Virus record (IMG/VR): IMGVR_UViG_2545824717_000010
Origin: a virus
Taxonomy: Duplodnaviria > Heunggongvirae > Uroviricota > Caudoviricetes
Length of the DNA: 23,357 bases
Strand: one strand, 5' to 3'
Position 1 is the stretch's first letter, and each line of letters starts with the position of its first letter. The position numbers were made by a program, and so were the translations under genes. Positions 1 through 11,316 of the stretch are shown here, piece by piece. The notes beneath the pieces are model-generated. The model was not told the DNA's origin. It saw only the letters and a list, made by a program, of their open reading frames with translations, and did not search any database.

Positions 1-1002
1 TTACCCTCTATTGTCAAAAGGGTTCAATTCAACAGCAGCCTCTAAATGACCTGGAGCAAAATGCGCATAACGCATAGTCATTTTTATATCGCTATGCCCC
101 AGTATTTTTTGCAACACAAGAATATTTCCGCCCCGCATCATAAAATGACTGGCAAACGTGTGACGTAGCACATGAGTTAATTGCCCATCAGGAAGCTCGA
201 TCTTCGCTCTCTTAATTGCAGCGTCAAAAGCCTCATAACATGGTGAAAATAGCGCTCCTCGTTTTTTAGGAAGCATAGCCTGCAATTGAGGTGAAATCGG
301 TACAGTGCGGTTCTTCTTTCCTTTAGTTTTAACAAATGTGATTCGACCGGGCAGTACTTGAGATTGCTTTAATCCTTCTGCTTCACTCCACCGAGCACCC
401 GTCGCAAGCCCAATACGGACAACAACCCCCAAATCTTTATTCCGTGACTCATCACACGCAATCAGAAGGCGCTCAATCTCATCTACATACAGAAACGCCA
501 GTTCCTTTTCTTCCTCACGAAACTTGCGAATACCAGTCAGGGGGTTTTCACCAGACCACTCCCCAAGGCGCTTCAGTTCGGCAAAAACAGCATGTAGATA
601 TGACTGCTCGCGATTAACGGTTGCTTCACTAAGTTTTTTCTTCCCCTTGGGATTCCATTCTCCAGATAGCCTTCTTTCCCGATAAGTAGCAAACATATTT
701 TTGTCAAACTGAGAAGCAAATGGATCTCCCAGCCTGGAACAAATCGCCTCAAGTTTGACTTTGCGCTCTGCACCAGAGGACAAGGTTTTACCGTACATCT
801 CAAACCAACGAGCAATCAACTCAGAAAGACGAGGACCAGAACCATCTTGAAACTCGTCTCCAACTCTACTATTCATTAAACGGCGCTCATAAGAGAGCGC
901 CTCACTTTTTGTCGCAAACTGTTTACGAATGCGTTTTCCCGATGCCCCGTAGGGATAACATTCGCAAAGCCATTTACCTGATGGAATCTTACGAACCGAC
1001 AT
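1..1002 (-). CDS. int: Tyrosine integrase, P2 family
   Basis: 333 aa; C-terminal recombinase motifs (LATGARWSEA, HVLRHTFASHFMMRGGNILVLQKILGH, MTMRYAHF with catalytic Tyr); strong resemblance to P2 Int as recalled. Stop codon sits at window positions 1..3. Confidence 0.9.
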   Translation of the reverse strand: MSVRKIPSGKWLCECYPYGASGKRIRKQFATKSEALSYERRLMNSRVGDEFQDGSGPRLSELIARWFEMYGKTLSSGAERKVKLEAICSRLGDPFASQFDKNMFATYRERRLSGEWNPKGKKKLSEATVNREQSYLHAVFAELKRLGEWSGENPLTGIRKFREEEKELAFLYVDEIERLLIACDESRNKDLGVVVRIGLATGARWSEAEGLKQSQVLPGRITFVKTKGKKNRTVPISPQLQAMLPKKRGALFSPCYEAFDAAIKRAKIELPDGQLTHVLRHTFASHFMMRGGNILVLQKILGHSDIKMTMRYAHFAPGHLEAAVELNPFDNRG

Positions 1003-1007
1003 TTTAG

Positions 1008-1355
1008 TTACTTATCACATAAATCAAATGCAGCCTTAGTGACATCCCCCAGACTCTTTTTTAACCCTGGGGCGGCATCATTATCTAGCCAAAATGGATT
1101 ATTGTTATCTAACGGTAACGCACCAAATGTTTTACCTTTTATTCGAGCCAAACCTGTAAGTGCATATAACTTATTATCGTCAAAATTCATCACATAAGGA
1201 TTACCATCAAGACACTGTAATTGAACCTCATCAGTATTAAATGGCCATACCCCATTGAAACTCTCACGTTCAATAGTTTTAAAAGGCATTGCGACGGCGG
1301 AAAAAGAAAACATAGATAAAAAAGTAACTAATAGTTGAACCTTTTTTACTTTCAT
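1008..1355 (-). CDS. Small secreted/periplasmic protein, unknown function (cargo)
   Basis: 115 aa; N-terminal signal peptide (MKVKKVQLLVTFLSMFSFSAVA, AxA-type cleavage site), two Cys (near N- and C-terminus of mature part); AT-rich; 5 bp upstream of int start. From memory it may resemble YebY-like small periplasmic proteins, unverified. Confidence 0.6.
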   Translation of the reverse strand: MKVKKVQLLVTFLSMFSFSAVAMPFKTIERESFNGVWPFNTDEVQLQCLDGNPYVMNFDDNKLYALTGLARIKGKTFGALPLDNNNPFWLDNDAAPGLKKSLGDVTKAAFDLCDK

Positions 1356-1384: not shown

Positions 1385-2035
1385 TTACAAATTAAAAAAC
1401 GCCCTAGAAATGAAACCGCCTACCAAACCCCCTACGCAGATAAAGAATATTATTTCTTTTGGATAAAGTCGGATTAATTCTGAAGCACGAAGTCGGACTT
1501 CTGGTAAGGTCGAACTCTCTGTGTGGCTTGATGCCGATTGTTGCTCTAACCACGACAATGCAGACTGTAACTGAGAACGAGTAAGATCGTTTAAACGTCC
1601 TGTACCGAAATTGATATGGCAATACCGCAGAAGTTTTTGTCGAAGTCCACAGTCTTCACTGTTACGTAGTAATAAACTTACAAGAGCCTTACAGGCATCA
1701 TGATCTTTACATCGCTCAAGCATTGCATGCAGAAAACTCTCCGCTGTTTTATATTGATTTACTGTCATATCATCAATACCAGCTACACCAATCTCCGCAT
1801 GTACTTTTTGCCAAATAATAAACGCTTCAGTATTGCTAGCTTCTGCAATAGCAGCAACCAAGCTATTTAGCTCCTTACGCTGAACCTTAAGCAAAGGGCG
1901 ATCGTCATCATCATTATTCGAAGGGATTGCGATATTGACGGTCTGAGAACCATCATATCGCTCTATCTGAATATTCTTTTCGTGAAAATCACGCCCAGCA
2001 ACGCGATTGTTTGAACCGTTTGAGTTGACGGCCAT
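1385..2035 (-). CDS. Tail-anchored membrane protein, unknown function (cargo)
   Basis: 216 aa; soluble N-terminal domain with acidic DDDD stretch; single C-terminal hydrophobic segment (IIFFICVGGLVGGFISRAFF); AT-rich; 15 bp downstream of the HTH regulator gene. Confidence 0.6.
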   Translation of the reverse strand: MAVNSNGSNNRVAGRDFHEKNIQIERYDGSQTVNIAIPSNNDDDDRPLLKVQRKELNSLVAAIAEASNTEAFIIWQKVHAEIGVAGIDDMTVNQYKTAESFLHAMLERCKDHDACKALVSLLLRNSEDCGLRQKLLRYCHINFGTGRLNDLTRSQLQSALSWLEQQSASSHTESSTLPEVRLRASELIRLYPKEIIFFICVGGLVGGFISRAFFNL

Positions 2036-2050
2036 GTCACCTCCCTACTA

Positions 2051-2455
2051 TCACCTACCCTTAGTTTCGTTATAGTCACGACCAGCGATACGGTTATTAC
2101 CACCAGAAATATTTAACTCACGTCCTGATGGCTGAGTTTCCTTTTCACTGATCGCACCTTTTAAAGCCCCAATCACCGCGTTTTTCACATCTAACGAAGC
2201 TGCTCGAAAGCGAGTAATCAACTCCTGCTCATCATCGTTATAAGTTTCAGGTGAGTGAATTCCCAACACAACATACTGAACATCAAGGCCAAAACGAGAC
2301 AGCGCTGCCAAATACGCAGCATCAGGAAAGCTATCTCCTTTCTCATATCTAAGCTGAGTTAGCTTTTTGACTCCACCAATGTCGCTCATGGCAACTTGAC
2401 TAAGTCCCAATCTTTCCCTTTCCTCACGCAACCGCTGACCAATATCATTTTTCAT
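2051..2455 (-). CDS. HTH (XRE-type) transcriptional regulator, putative prophage repressor
   Basis: 134 aa; N-terminal helix-turn-helix pattern (QRLREERERLGLSQVAMSDIGGVKKLTQLRYEKG); divergent from the early operon; first gene of an operon ending in int, as P2 C-int. Confidence 0.7.
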   Translation of the reverse strand: MKNDIGQRLREERERLGLSQVAMSDIGGVKKLTQLRYEKGDSFPDAAYLAALSRFGLDVQYVVLGIHSPETYNDDEQELITRFRAASLDVKNAVIGALKGAISEKETQPSGRELNISGGNNRIAGRDYNETKGR

Positions 2456-2464
2456 ACAAAAACC

Positions 2465-2493
2465 TTGACAGGTATCTTTTTTGATACCAAAAT
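2465..2493 (+). promoter_or_regulatory. Candidate early promoter (-35 TTGACA, 17-bp spacer, -10 CAAAAT) with operator palindrome GGTATC-T6-GATACC in the spacer
   Basis: TTGACA at 2465..2470; perfect 6-bp inverted repeat at 2471..2488; lies in the divergent intergenic region between the repressor-like gene and the early operon. Confidence 0.4.
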
Positions 2494-2530
2494 GATTTCA
2501 CGAGCTATTAGATGATCACAATATACCACT

Positions 2531-2737
2531 ATGAAACAAGTTCTTCACGATACCAGATCACGCATTCCGCGTAACACCGCCACAGGTCCAAGACTGGCAC
2601 TTCGGCTGTCCCTCGAGGAGCGAGCCGTCATCGATGAAATGGCAGCTAAAGAACAACGCTCATCCTCTAACATGGCGCGCATGATCTTCCTTCGCGGCCT
2701 AGAGCTAACCCAGAAAGAACAAAACAAATCTTCCTGA
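2531..2737 (+). CDS. Small early regulator, possible ribbon-helix-helix fold (Cro/Cox-like role)
   Basis: 68 aa; predicted beta-strand (LALRLSL) followed by two helices (EERAVIDEMAAKEQ, NMARMIFLRGLE); first ORF of the rightward early operon; no obvious Shine-Dalgarno. Confidence 0.45.
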   Translation: MKQVLHDTRSRIPRNTATGPRLALRLSLEERAVIDEMAAKEQRSSSNMARMIFLRGLELTQKEQNKSS

Positions 2738-2753
2738 TCAGGAGGCTAGTGGG

Positions 2754-2957
2754 ATGTCAGGTATAACCATCAATATCAATGTGAATGCCCCCTATGTATC
2801 CCTGCAGAAATATGCAGAGATAACAGGTATCCCTCTTAATACATGCAAAAAGATGTTGGCTGACGGTCGAATTATTATCCGCCCCAAACGCGCCAAAATG
2901 GAAAAGCCTGAAGTAAACCTTGTGGCGATGTTAAAAGACGCTTTGGCTAACAGCTAA
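2754..2957 (+). CDS. Small HTH DNA-binding protein, Cox/excisionase-like
   Basis: 67 aa; strong RBS AGGAGG upstream; segment YVSLQKYAEITGIPLNTCKKMLADGRI resembles the HTH region of P2 Cox-type proteins as recalled. Confidence 0.5.
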   Translation: MSGITININVNAPYVSLQKYAEITGIPLNTCKKMLADGRIIIRPKRAKMEKPEVNLVAMLKDALANS

Positions 2958-2978
2958 AACAATGAACAGAGCACCATC

Positions 2979-3329
2979 ATGAAAAAAAACGCTAATAATC
3001 CATACTCCAAATTTCGTAATGGCGTAGAACGCCATGTACACCACGTCGCTACCAGTGCATCACGTAGTAACAGTCGCTATAACCTGAACGAGACGCACGC
3101 AACACCGGATGGCCACGCTGTAAAACAAATCGGCGAGCATGCCTGGCTGATTGAGAAAGCTGGAATCGTGGTCCACAAATGCCCACGCAATCCGTTTACC
3201 GGAAACCGCATTTTTGCATTGAACTGCGGCGACAATCACTTCGGGCAGGATTTCACATTATACGAAGCACTTCGCACGGTTGATCGTCTGCTTCGCGGGC
3301 AAAGTTTTATTAAACAGGCTGATTTATAA
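2979..3329 (+). CDS. Hypothetical early protein
   Basis: 116 aa ORF in early operon; His/Cys-rich (HVHHV, HKCP, NCGDNH), possible metal-binding. Confidence 0.5.
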   Translation: MKKNANNPYSKFRNGVERHVHHVATSASRSNSRYNLNETHATPDGHAVKQIGEHAWLIEKAGIVVHKCPRNPFTGNRIFALNCGDNHFGQDFTLYEALRTVDRLLRGQSFIKQADL

Positions 3330-8755: not shown

Positions 8756-9601
8756 ATGACAAAGCCTTCTCATTTTAGAACCCCTCTTCGTTATCCGGGA
8801 GGTAAGGCAAAATTCTTGCCACATATTGAACAAATACTCCGCAACAATGATCTCATTGGTGGATGTTATGCTGAACCTTATGCAGGTGGAGCCGGTGTAG
8901 CATTAGGTTTGCTCCTTAACGGTCTTGTTGAAAATATCTTCATAAATGATATTGATCCTGCCCTTTATTCTTTTTGGTTTGCAGTGGTTAATCATAACGA
9001 TCTGTTATGTGAAATGATTGATGAAGTTCCTGTGACTATTGAAAATTGGCATACTCAAAAGGAGATACTCCTAAACAATGATAAATATAGTATGCTTGAA
9101 GTCGCATTATCTACTTTCTTTTTAAATAGAACAAACCGTTCAGGAATACTTAAGGCTGGCGTTATTGGAGGGAAAGAACAAAAAGGACCATGGAAGTTAG
9201 ATGCAAGATTCAACAAAAAAGAGTTAATTAAAAGGATTGAACTAATTGGTGCATATAAGGAGAAAATTTACGTATCGAATTTTGATGCTGTAGATTTTCT
9301 GCTACACCAAAAAGCATTGCTACCCAAAAATAGTCTAATATATCTTGATCCACCTTATTATGTTAAAGGAGCAGAGTTATATAGAAATTTTTATAAACAT
9401 GATGATCATGTAAAAATCGCTAATACACTACGGGAAATTCAACTACCTTGGGTTGTGTCTTATGACAATGTGCCTGAAATAAAAAGCATATATCATGAAT
9501 TCAATATGACTGATTATACGCTTAATTATACTGCACAAGATAAGAAAAAAGGTCTAGAAATTATCATTTATAATCATGGTATAAAAATCCCTGACATTTA
9601 A
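8756..9601 (+). CDS. N6-adenine DNA methyltransferase, D12/Dam family (alpha class)
   Basis: 281 aa; N-terminal RYPGGK motif; SAM-binding motif I EPYAGGAGV (about 8870..8896); catalytic motif IV DPPY (9347..9358); markedly AT-rich versus flanks. Target sequence cannot be inferred. Confidence 0.85.
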   Translation: MTKPSHFRTPLRYPGGKAKFLPHIEQILRNNDLIGGCYAEPYAGGAGVALGLLLNGLVENIFINDIDPALYSFWFAVVNHNDLLCEMIDEVPVTIENWHTQKEILLNNDKYSMLEVALSTFFLNRTNRSGILKAGVIGGKEQKGPWKLDARFNKKELIKRIELIGAYKEKIYVSNFDAVDFLLHQKALLPKNSLIYLDPPYYVKGAELYRNFYKHDDHVKIANTLREIQLPWVVSYDNVPEIKSIYHEFNMTDYTLNYTAQDKKKGLEIIIYNHGIKIPDI

Positions 9602-9618
9602 ATTTAAGGATGATATAG

Positions 9619-11316
9619 ATGATTAAAGAAATTAGTTTTAAAAAATTTAAGAAACTGATAGATATTGACTTCTCATTCAATGAAGACATCAATATAATAT
9701 CAGGAACCAATGGGACATGTAAGACAACATTGCTTCATTTAATTAGCAATGGTTTCCAAATGCCACCATCTCGATCACAAAATTATTCAAATAGTAATTG
9801 TGTTAGAGTTATAAAATCTATAAACAAAATAGCCAACCCCAAAATGGAAGCAATTGTTAGGGAATCAAAAAATTACACCGATCCGGCAGAGGGAACAAAA
9901 GGTGTGTTATTTTCTATTAACTATTTGGATCATAGCACACTAGACTTCAGAAAGCACAACTCAAAAAATCCAGACGAAGCGCAACGGTATGCTATCAAAC
10001 CAGTATACCCACGCGGAAAAGAAAAACAATCACTTCCAGCTAAACCAGTTTTATATCTTGGATTATCGCGACTATTCCCAATTGGTGAAACTAAAGACGA
10101 CGCCCTTACAAAAATTCCGTTAAACCTACCAGAAGAGTATGTTGGTTATATATCGAAAATATATAATGAACTTTTGGGAATTAATATTATAAATATAGAA
10201 TCAAACAATATCGGTGATTTTAAAGCTGGCCCATTATTTGATACCGATAACCCAGCAATTGATTCTAATACCATATCATCCGGGGAAGACAATATATTCA
10301 TTATAATCAAGGCATTAGTTAGCCTTAGGTATTATTTTGAATCACTTATTCAATCCACTGATCAAAAAGAAAGCATTCTGTTAATAGATGAATTTGATGC
10401 CACTTTACATCCTTCTTTACAGATAAGATTATTAGATAAAATTTATCAATACGCAAAAGATTATAAGATTCAAGTATTTTTCACAACGCACAGTCTGACA
10501 TTGCTAGAGTATGCTTTTCATAAAAAATACCATGTTGTCTATCTAATTAACAATATTACAAAGGCTCTGCTTTTGGATAATCCTGATATATTAAAAATAA
10601 CAATGTATCTGAAAACACAAACAAAGGATGAGATATACACAAGGAACAAGATACCAGTTTTCACGGAAGATGAAGAAGCTCGCTTTTTATTTAATGAAAT
10701 ACTTGGTTATTGGATAAGCAAATATCCAAATTTTGCTATAGTTAGTAATTCATTTCACTTAATTGATTGTTTCATTGGTGCAGACAATTTAAAAACTATT
10801 TTTAATGATTCTCATCTTAAGGAAACCTCGTTAAAATCAATTTGTATTCTTGATGGAGATCACAGCCCTGAGGATCAGAGAGGAATTATATCACTGCCGG
10901 GTGAAAAAGCTCCAGAACAATTGATATTTGAGCATTGTGAGCACCTTTATAATACCGACGACTCTTCCTTCTGGGAAAATCAGGATATAATTAACAATGG
11001 TTTTTCGAAAGAGTTATACTTACTCAAGATACGTCCTCAATTACAATCAATTGAAACTGAAATTCAGAAAAGAAAAGACAACCATGAGTCTACATCCGGT
11101 TTAAGAAGAAGATTAAATAAGAAAATATTCAATCAGCATATTGAATTCTTTAGAATGATTACAAGAAACTGGTTAGACAAACCAGAAAATCAGAAATCTC
11201 TCCAGTATTTTTACAATGGATTACGATCCTTATTCTACCGGGTTACACCAACAAACGGCATTGACAGAAAAATTTGGGATTTTGACTATAACAAAATCAT
11301 TAAAGAGGATAAATAA
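9619..11316 (+). CDS. ABC-type ATPase fused to a TOPRIM-like nuclease domain (OLD/PARIS-like architecture)
   Basis: 565 aa; Walker A GTNGTCKTT (about 9703..9729); Walker B LLIDEFD (about 10381..10400); TTHS motif; C-terminal region with conserved Glu (VFTEDEEA, about 10654..10680) and DxD (ILDGDH, about 10846..10860) consistent with TOPRIM; starts 17 bp after the MTase stop; very AT-rich. Confidence 0.75.
   Translation: MIKEISFKKFKKLIDIDFSFNEDINIISGTNGTCKTTLLHLISNGFQMPPSRSQNYSNSNCVRVIKSINKIANPKMEAIVRESKNYTDPAEGTKGVLFSINYLDHSTLDFRKHNSKNPDEAQRYAIKPVYPRGKEKQSLPAKPVLYLGLSRLFPIGETKDDALTKIPLNLPEEYVGYISKIYNELLGINIINIESNNIGDFKAGPLFDTDNPAIDSNTISSGEDNIFIIIKALVSLRYYFESLIQSTDQKESILLIDEFDATLHPSLQIRLLDKIYQYAKDYKIQVFFTTHSLTLLEYAFHKKYHVVYLINNITKALLLDNPDILKITMYLKTQTKDEIYTRNKIPVFTEDEEARFLFNEILGYWISKYPNFAIVSNSFHLIDCFIGADNLKTIFNDSHLKETSLKSICILDGDHSPEDQRGIISLPGEKAPEQLIFEHCEHLYNTDDSSFWENQDIINNGFSKELYLLKIRPQLQSIETEIQKRKDNHESTSGLRRRLNKKIFNQHIEFFRMITRNWLDKPENQKSLQYFYNGLRSLFYRVTPTNGIDRKIWDFDYNKIIKEDK

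Follow-up and report, generated by a model that had tools for sequence, protein, structure and literature searches.

We analysed a 23,357-nucleotide (nt) stretch of viral DNA (IMG/VR record IMGVR_UViG_2545824717_000010; "the window" below means this whole stretch), and focused on two adjoining minus-strand genes: an XRE/cI-type helix-turn-helix (HTH) immunity repressor of 134 amino acids (aa) and, directly downstream, a 216-aa membrane-anchored partner. The C-terminal tail of the repressor and the N-terminal head of the partner carry similar short peptides, and the site of this mirrored pair is the immunity region of a P2-like (Peduoviridae) Escherichia coli prophage. The first 3.4 kb of the window were 100% identical to the chromosome of E. 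coli strain 51489 and 96.9% identical to Escherichia phage 520873, and at least 80% of the length of this segment was found in 506 of 5,426 complete E. coli genomes. The leftward gene order is XRE repressor, partner, DUF2511 protein and tyrosine integrase; the opposite strand encodes an Arc-like gene, a Cox-like gene, DUF4761 and the P2 gpA replication gene. Because the repressor is transcribed divergently from the Arc-like/Cox-like/gpA operon and has int downstream on its own strand, synteny suggests that the HTH protein is the positional counterpart of P2 C and 186 CI. Coordinates are collected in Table 1.

A Smith-Waterman alignment of the two full-length proteins returned repressor residues 114–130 and partner residues 3–19 as the best local alignment, scoring 62, and 10 of the 17 aligned positions were identical. 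The same alignment against a shuffled second protein scored 29.1 ± 4.7, and a score of 62 was reached in only 1 of 20,000 shuffles. The repressor's C-terminus reads ...GRELNISGGNNRIAGRDYNETKGR and the partner's N-terminus reads MAVNSNGSNNRVAGRDFHEKNIQIERYDG. An earlier note on this DNA had reported a duplicated peptide motif straddling the boundary between the regulator and a downstream membrane protein, and the alignment confirmed it; the interval given there (1985–2098) does span both copies, and we refined it to the two separate segments listed in Table 1. A search of all six frames of the whole window found no third copy of the motif. The aligned codons of this pair, which is also carried by rows L086–L088 of the survey described below, were just 59% identical as DNA; thus, the likeness of tail and head in the window resides at the protein level.

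The repressor matched phrog_8 (E=2.5e-14), the Pfam families HTH_31 and HTH_3 (HTH_31 with E=8e-5 and a score of 23.2, which is below the curated cut-off of 27) and the NCBIfam families RstR and DicA, with weak HTH-level NCBIfam matches to the MqsA and Y4mF antitoxin families. Its AlphaFold model consists of a five-helix HTH at residues 5–64 (per-residue confidence, pLDDT, >90) and two helices at residues 74–102, followed by an unstructured tail at residues 103–134 (pLDDT ~50). No S24 peptidase domain was matched in Pfam or NCBIfam, the chain after the HTH being just the two helices and the tail; the repressor therefore falls outside the LexA/lambda-CI self-cleaving type.

The partner matched phrog_5825 across its full length. 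Its conserved head region is predicted to be disordered (residues 1–41 had pLDDT <50) and includes a second segment, IQIERYDGSQTVNIAIPS. The helical domain that follows was recognised in several ways: residues 35–166 matched the flagellar regulator Flk in NCBIfam (PRK10715, E=3.7e-15), homologues of the partner carried the precomputed Pfam family PF27202, named Flk_N, BLASTP against E. coli K-12 Flk gave E=3e-10 with 28% identity over 124 residues, and AlphaFold placed helices at residues 50–171 with pLDDT ~85. A C-terminal transmembrane (TM) helix bore out the statement of the earlier note that the downstream product is a membrane protein. From the model we infer a single C-terminal anchor with the remainder of the protein in the cytoplasm. 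Host Flk has an equivalent C-terminal anchor architecture (PMC13344023).

Thus, host Flk and the partner are alike in combining an Flk_N helical domain with a membrane anchor at the C-terminus. They differ in that the host protein lacks the head motif: its first 25 residues are unrelated, and its alignment to the partner begins only at partner residue 45. Host Flk is moreover 331 aa long with a duplicated domain, and it does not lie beside a repressor. We found no flagellar context for the prophage partner, whose gene belongs to a prophage immunity operon. The Flk_N partner cluster (P0218) was present on 754 contigs. Among phage records, tblastn with the window's partner matched only Escherichia phage 520873 (NC_049344.1), where residues 1–202 were recovered in three pieces at 2462–3065, a region with no annotated feature. 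The Flk_N gene of that phage may be frameshifted or merely unannotated.

Table 1. Coordinates of the mirrored pair and of other features; positions are those of the window unless another record is named.
Feature	Position	Strand	Basis or remarks
Tyrosine integrase	1-1002	-	last gene of the leftward unit
DUF2511 protein	1008-1355	-	phrog_2950, E=9e-40; in the leftward unit with the pair
Partner protein, 216 aa, tail-anchored Flk_N	1385-2035	-	open reading frame (ORF)
C-terminal transmembrane anchor, partner aa 192-215	1391-1462	-	AlphaFold helix; hydrophobic sequence EIIFFICVGGLVGGFISRAFF
Flk_N helical domain, partner aa 46-171	1523-1900	-	NCBIfam, PF27202 on homologues, BLASTP, AlphaFold
Conserved head region, predicted disordered, partner aa 1-45	1901-2035	-	AlphaFold pLDDT, column conservation
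Head copy, partner aa 2-19, AVNSNGSNNRVAGRDFHE after the initial M	1979-2032	-	alignment, conservation
Junction, 15 nt	2036-2050	-	repressor stop TGA (2051-2053), then TAG TAG, GGAGG; ATG at 2035
XRE/cI-type HTH immunity repressor, 134 aa	2051-2455	-	ORF, family matches, AlphaFold model
Tail copy, repressor aa 114-130, LNISGGNNRIAGRDYNE	2066-2116	-	alignment, conservation; basic end TKGR next
Divergent control region, 75 nt	2456-2530	.	between the repressor and the Arc-like/Cox-like early operon
Imperfect 19-nt inverted repeat	2444-2462 / 2478-2496		74% complementary
Sigma-70-like early promoter, TTGACA-17-CAAAAT	2465-2493	+	consensus match; function inferred
Cargo genes	8756-11316	+	between gpA and the structural genes
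BcepMu gp17/gp18 pair	L173 2088-3283 = NC_005882.1 9226-10421		overlapping stop/start

The motif was conserved in both protein families across Enterobacterales, as the comparison of homologues proposed in the earlier note revealed. Among the 120 regulator homologues listed, close enterobacterial C-termini read ...[IV]N[VI]SG.GNR[IV]AGRD[YF][NH]E.KK, and among the 120 partner homologues listed, N-termini of the form M.VNS.G..NR.[AS]GRD[FY][NH]E were found in essentially all. In an alignment of 51 partners, N10, R11, D16 and E19 were invariant and G14 and R15 nearly so, and the head residues ranked among the most conserved of the whole protein. When MAFFT was given a fused sequence, it placed the regulator tails onto the partner head, which shows how closely tail and head resemble one another.

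Across pairs, the DNA of tail and head was 50–81% identical over the aligned codons. Identical residues used the same codon in 198 of 472 cases, compared with 179 expected from pooled codon usage. Codon sharing was thus near expectation and gave no sign of recent duplication or gene conversion, nor of an avoidance of repeats, and recent gene conversion was rejected on this count. The ratio of nonsynonymous to synonymous substitution rates (dN/dS) was 0.23 for the tail and 0.29 for the head (the Flk_N domain gave 0.20 and the HTH 0.06), indicating that both copies are translated and under purifying selection. The claim of the earlier note that the likeness is conserved in the proteins, and is not the product of a recent DNA duplication, therefore held.

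We surveyed ~170 prophage loci in all (165 when the co-variation set was assembled), which belong to P2-like or Mu-like prophages in Gamma- and Betaproteobacteria; those of the Mu-like type contained an rve transposase, ner-like genes and a divergent arrangement. Distant regulators had different Gly/Asn-rich tails, and in these cases the head of the next gene mirrored the local tail, not the E. coli motif. Examples are L023 (tail YTVDYGNAQIGQASAGDIVNKNG, head KTVSFGGAQIDQAAAGDINNYYG), L004 from Pseudomonas (tail QQFNGPVGTVTSGDVVNH, head QQFHDRVHQVAAGDIKNF), L001 (tail QVFHGDINGQFAGNKIVNN, head QEFNGTAQGQFSSRDIINI), L002 (tail GEGQIAGGNIYTT, head TAEQIAGRDIYNI), L151 (tail KQVFHGAVSGGVAARDIINN, head MQEFQGNVDGGVAGRDIVNQ) and L130 (tail FTVSGDNNRVAGRDYKGK, head FNVGGNNNRVAGRDYHEH).

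Statistical comparison showed that this matching is specific to the true pairs. For 29 non-redundant pairs, the mean score was 38.8 for true combinations versus 21.9 for mismatched ones (standard deviation 8.9), the true head ranked first in 9 of the 29, and the permutation test gave p<=5e-5, all without correction for phylogeny. With a score >=35 taken as a mirror, 49 of 64 unique tightly linked pairs qualified versus 2 of 32 loosely linked pairs. The latter, which served as negative controls, were mostly chromosomal Pseudomonas regulators with helical tails and an adjoining response regulator. Four additional regulators whose tails were unusual were then tested blind, and all four had a matching head (for example L171: tail AGDVNGQVFEGDATNTAPVTFTI, head EGDYHGQMADTINNHAPVLTIHM). 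Within the NR.AGRD class (19 pairs), tail and head had the same residue at the variable hydrophobic position in 10 pairs, where 5.6 would be expected (p=0.018), and at the F/Y position in 13 pairs, where 8.6 would be expected (p=0.035); polar positions in this class showed no co-variation.

Homologous Flk_N proteins carried at least five head classes, each matching the tail of the neighbouring repressor. Because related proteins bear so many matched classes, the match must be kept either by co-evolution or by repeated replacement under selection. We concluded from these sequence comparisons that the matching of tail and head is itself functional under either route of maintenance.

The junction between the two genes was considered as a possible site of action in its own right. 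In the window it reads TGA TAG TAG GGA GGT GAC ATG, with a GGAGG Shine-Dalgarno sequence six nt ahead of the ATG. A nucleic-acid or translation device would link the two genes through mRNA structure, ribosome arrest, read-through or bypassing, and two observations recall such a device: both ORFs share one reading frame in the window, and R-[IV]-A-G faintly resembles the RAGP arrest motifs of SecM-type leaders that regulate downstream membrane-protein genes. Against it, the gap between repressor and partner, which is 15 nt in the window, ranged from −8 to +35 nt across loci and the relative frame varied. The RNA fold of the junction (1975–2110) was no more stable than shuffled sequences (z = −0.12), the likeness is one of amino acids and not of nucleotides, and the three consecutive stops would prevent read-through. 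We consider a device of this kind scarcely credible. Two specific forms were rejected. A SecM-type arrest peptide has no need of a second copy in the downstream protein, and a read-through fusion is blocked by TGA TAG TAG and by a frame that varies between loci; the triple in-frame stop itself looks like a hard block against read-through fusion of the mirror-bearing proteins.

The head was found on several (at least six) unrelated families of downstream proteins, nearly all of them membrane proteins. They include the Flk_N proteins with a TM anchor (~200 aa), proteins of 260–340 aa that join an Flk_N-like segment and a coiled coil to a single TM helix and a small Cys-containing domain in the periplasm, multi-TM proteins of 144–183 aa, and a Zn-ribbon and TM protein of 118 aa. 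Because the head occurs on unrelated families and is missing from host Flk, it appears to be a portable module that goes with the neighbouring repressor. None of the partners tested matched a known family of toxins, defence proteins or sensors (Pfam, NCBIfam and PADLOC for the window's partner; Pfam and PADLOC for the others).

The longer partner class includes gp18 of the transposable phage BcepMu, whose gene overlaps that of gp17, annotated as a cro/cI-type regulator. The tail of BcepMu gp17 reads ...QEQVFHGSVGQAVKVEGNLDQQG... and the head of gp18 reads ...GKQEFNKPVGQAIQAGEANIADRS..., and gp46/gp47 of phiE255 are the same module. Beyond phage 520873, searches of phage records returned named phages only from the BcepMu/phiE255 group, and searches with the L004 (Pseudomonas) and L171 partners returned no matches. 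BcepMu and phiE255 would be convenient experimental systems for the mirrored pair.

The distribution of the head bears on the idea that the motif is an evolutionary leftover, in which a duplication of the repressor's 3' end or a gene fission left two copies with no present function. The copies are indeed adjacent direct repeats at the protein level, as such an origin would leave them. However, synonymous sites are saturated while the amino acids have been kept, with dN/dS for both copies comparable to that of the Flk_N domain; the head is among the best conserved parts of the partner; several unrelated partner families carry the mirror; and related Flk_N proteins have locally matched heads of at least five classes. 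A functionless remnant is thus very improbable. Gene fission, which the earlier note had suggested as an ancestral footprint, was rejected: fission would not duplicate a peptide, the mirror occurs on six or more unrelated families, and the host paralogue Flk has no head. No fused HTH–partner protein was seen among the homologues examined.

A second alternative is heterotypic docking, whereby the peptide would bind the Flk_N domain or the repressor's helical domain, and the head would be an intramolecular mimic acting as autoinhibitor or competitor. Molecular mimicry can yield similar sequences without homotypic contact, and Flk_N is a protein-interaction module in host Flk (PMC13344023). Nevertheless, heads also occur on partners that lack an Flk_N domain, and AlphaFold docked neither copy on its own folded domain, placing neither the head on Flk_N nor the tail on the core of the repressor, although alignments of 51 sequences were supplied. 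We judge docking of this type to be improbable.

One Salmonella enterica locus (L167 767–2801, GCA_020212165.1) contained three tandem HTH regulators ahead of a single Flk_N partner. Two of these regulators have different HTH N-termini and share the tail NRVAGRDYNEKK, and the partner's head reads NKIAGRDYHEN; the third has a degenerate tail, ISDARNISDTGNNENK, and lies 135 nt from the partner. Because this tail sits on different HTH N-termini, and the head on varied partners, the peptide appears to be a portable module on both sides.

When the 45-aa head was run with phmmer against 1.84 billion representatives, no regulator tail was among the matches at E<=0.001. Matches were limited to Flk_N heads and two chance repeat proteins (P0244 and P0251), and the search therefore added no new contexts. 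In both chance matches the head look-alike lies inside beta-rich repeats. One is a eukaryotic Ig-domain protein that repeats ...CEANNIAGRDFHEIKLNV..., the F-G hairpin region of an Ig domain; the other is a phage-like protein that repeats ...YDGSQAVTVNIP..., resembling the second half of the head (ERYDGSQTVNIAIPS). These look-alikes are compatible with a beta conformation of the head, without proving it.

In almost all regulators, the motif is directly followed by a cluster of K/R residues (NENKK, NKKNK, RRRKTK, GKKKPKG, GKGKKRK) that is missing from the heads. Such a cluster could act as a gatekeeper against aggregation, as a contact with membrane or DNA, or as a protease signal. The last possibility belongs to a third alternative, in which tail and head are a shared tag read by a third party of host or phage origin (ClpXP, Lon, FtsH, an adaptor or a chaperone), and the two proteins are degraded or handled side by side with no contact between them. 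As would suit a tag, tail and head both lie at termini and are disordered and conserved, and a degenerate core, G.V.G.[VI]AG[RG]D[IV].N, is common to many classes. The nearly universal K/R ends of the regulator tails recall two cases from phage Mu: the basic ClpX signal at the C-terminus of MuA, and the Mu repressor, whose degradation by ClpXP is controlled by its tail. Yet a conserved host factor would leave the pair-specific and lineage-specific matching unexplained, no co-varying third gene was common to the P2-like and Mu-like loci, the window has no third carrier of the motif, and the absence of a basic cluster from the heads does not suit a signal common to both proteins. For these reasons, we think a shared tag unlikely.

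The surroundings of the pair were also examined. Downstream of the partner, the leftward unit continues with gaps of 29 and 5 nt; a terminator-like site was not detected in this downstream part (1–1355). The DUF2511 protein, encoded between the Flk_N gene and int, has an N-terminal hydrophobic, signal-like segment. Upstream of the repressor, the inverted repeat contains GGTATC-TTTTTT-GATACC and both flanks and overlaps the −35 and −10 elements of the early promoter. The repressor or Cox/Arc may use it as an operator. Farther to the right, the first cargo gene encodes a D12-class adenine methyltransferase (PADLOC PD-Lambda-5_B match, E=8e-122) and the second a 565-aa ABC/OLD-type ATPase (AAA_15/AAA_21) with weak matches to the PtuA, AriA and GajA families; together they are probably a two-gene anti-phage system in the P2 hotspot.

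Taking the evidence on the pair as a whole, we lean, with somewhat better than even confidence, towards direct pairing: tail and head would be matched homotypic recognition peptides that couple the repressor to its membrane partner. The peptides, ~17–25 residues long, rich in N and G and disordered alone, would bind like with like, most plausibly as in-register beta structure and possibly as cross-beta (amyloid-like) structure of the kind known from BASS and HET-s/NWD2. Such pairing would physically tie the lysis–lysogeny repressor to a membrane-anchored protein. Two disordered, conserved and co-translated peptides, which are similar and not complementary and which co-vary by lineage, are what one would expect to see if like bound like. 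Similarity is needed for in-register beta stacking, and not for a peptide held in a groove. A partner-binding peptide had been among the suggestions of the earlier note, and comes close to this explanation. Both the contact between the two peptides and the direction of any signalling between partner and repressor are inferences.

Within direct pairing, we prefer a sub-model in which the membrane partner serves as the input for a membrane or envelope cue. It would capture or template repressor tails and so remove the repressor from action, providing an induction route for repressors that have no S24 self-cleavage domain. We lean to the partner acting on the repressor because the partners share the output peptide but vary in their non-cytoplasmic parts, which are sensor-like, and because the repressors lack a self-cleavage domain. 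The converse is almost as likely, namely that the repressor's tail restrains a membrane effector in the manner of toxin–antitoxin or abortive-infection systems; it is plausible because the operon layout is the same as that of HTH antitoxins.

A more specific proposal is a prion-like (cross-beta) signalling relay between the membrane protein and the prophage master repressor, which we offer tentatively and doubt more than we credit. In one direction, clustering of the partner would nucleate the heads, which would then template the repressor tails into an inactive assembly, and the outcome would be a switch-like, RecA-independent induction. In the other direction, a change in the state of the repressor would trigger the membrane partner. 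Prophages residing in the same cell would be insulated from one another by their lineage-specific motifs.

Direct pairing would matter for several reasons. In many prophages of the P2-like and Mu-like groups the repressor is short and has no self-cleavage domain, and few of the natural signals that induce them are known; a matched peptide would offer a concrete, testable route from envelope or infection signals to the lysis–lysogeny switch, or from the state of the repressor to a membrane effector. The module is also common, as the genome and contig counts given above indicate. If the contact were cross-beta, amyloid signalling, so far a matter of NLR/effector immunity pairs, would extend to the control of transcription in unicellular bacteria. 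If the prion-like relay were true, it would be the first amyloid-type signalling with a transcription factor, and proteobacterial prophages of the P2-like and Mu-like groups would carry it widely, BcepMu gp17/gp18 among them. The motif classes, being specific to lineages, resemble a natural set of orthogonal interaction tags. Moreover, the search signature used here, a C-terminus mirrored in the N-terminus of the next gene's product, can be applied genome-wide without assuming NLR or Bell partners. In the open-access and bioRxiv literature, we found no description of a mirror between repressor tail and partner head, and no functional work on Flk_N prophage proteins or on BcepMu gp18.

Among known systems, the closest likeness was to amyloid signalling pairs. 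Bacterial BASS1–11, fungal HET-S/NWD2 (HRAM) and Bab/Agp likewise have a motif of 15–25 aa at one C-terminus and at the N-terminus of the next collinear product, and it was by this genomic signature that such motifs were discovered. As in BASS/HRAM pairs, the intergenic distance is tiny or the genes overlap, the motif is portable across partner domains, and one partner is at the membrane; location in a prophage is a further likeness, which includes Bab/Agp. Of the BASS gene pairs of Dyrka et al., 57% are <=10 bp apart (10.1101/2020.01.06.895854), and because our loci have overlapping stop and start codons or tiny gaps, co-translation at fixed ratios is expected here as in BASS pairs. Composition also agreed. 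Our motifs were enriched in N (3.9x), G (2.35x), V (1.28x) and Q (1.24x), and depleted in L (0.09x), P (0.32x) and K (0.55x); the bias of amyloid signalling motifs is towards N, G, Q and V (also I) and away from K, P and L (10.1101/2020.01.06.895854), although I was not enriched in ours (0.89x). Bab/Agp, an abortive-infection pair borne by an E. coli prophage, works by amyloid templating (10.1101/2024.11.07.622273). We favour direct homotypic pairing because the composition bias and gene signature match those of amyloid signalling motifs, and because Bab/Agp provides a precedent.

Several points weigh against this explanation and its amyloid form in particular. The upstream partner here is a small XRE repressor and not an effector, and the downstream partner is a membrane protein where an NLR/STAND or TPR sensor would be usual. 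Searches of the downstream partner with Pfam, NCBIfam and PADLOC detected neither NB-ARC nor NACHT, and no Bell/HeLo or cell-death domain was matched, its globular part being Flk_N. A HET-s-type two-rung pseudo-repeat was detected in none of 48 heads at p<=0.01; a second GRD unit was marginal in Yersinia/Hafnia-type heads (p ~0.02). Among amyloid signalling motifs, a pseudo-repeat on one side occurs in some families only, such as HRAM, BASS1 and BASS6. AlphaFold monomers showed no beta structure in either copy, with pLDDT ~50 or below. The charged AGRD core is strictly conserved, and a linear motif read by a third protein would account for this equally well. In addition, 15 of the 64 tightly linked pairs fell below the mirror threshold, some as weaker mirrors and some with no mirror, and shared ancestry was not corrected for in the co-variation statistics. 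The hosts differ as well, being unicellular Gamma- and Betaproteobacteria. Because the partner domains and the pseudo-repeat do not correspond, even though motif, layout and composition do, we would not file the mirrored pair as a member of the BASS family, though it may work like one.

Three other comparisons are instructive. Sigma/anti-sigma operons (rpoE–rseA) also encode a DNA-binding regulator and then a single-pass membrane protein, often with stop/start overlap, and in operons of this type the cytoplasmic N-terminus of the membrane protein binds the regulator; a periplasmic domain is likewise present in some of the partners described here. Anti-sigma domains are folded and complement the sigma factor without being copies of it, whereas the present pairs have two similar disordered peptides and a regulator that is a repressor. 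Type II toxin–antitoxin systems (HipB, HigA, MqsA) share the HTH protein with a disordered C-terminal tail and the translationally coupled downstream protein. However, antitoxin tails wrap folded toxins instead of mirroring a peptide, the downstream proteins here match no known toxin family, and the HTH protein is in the position of an immunity repressor. Lastly, although neither is related in sequence to our pair or carries a mirrored peptide, lambda cI-rexA-rexB and the Mu repressor resemble it in logic: in lambda, lysogens reportedly transcribe a membrane protein together with the immunity repressor, and this protein acts back on the switch, and in phage Mu, the C-terminal tail of the repressor governs the fate of the repressor in trans.

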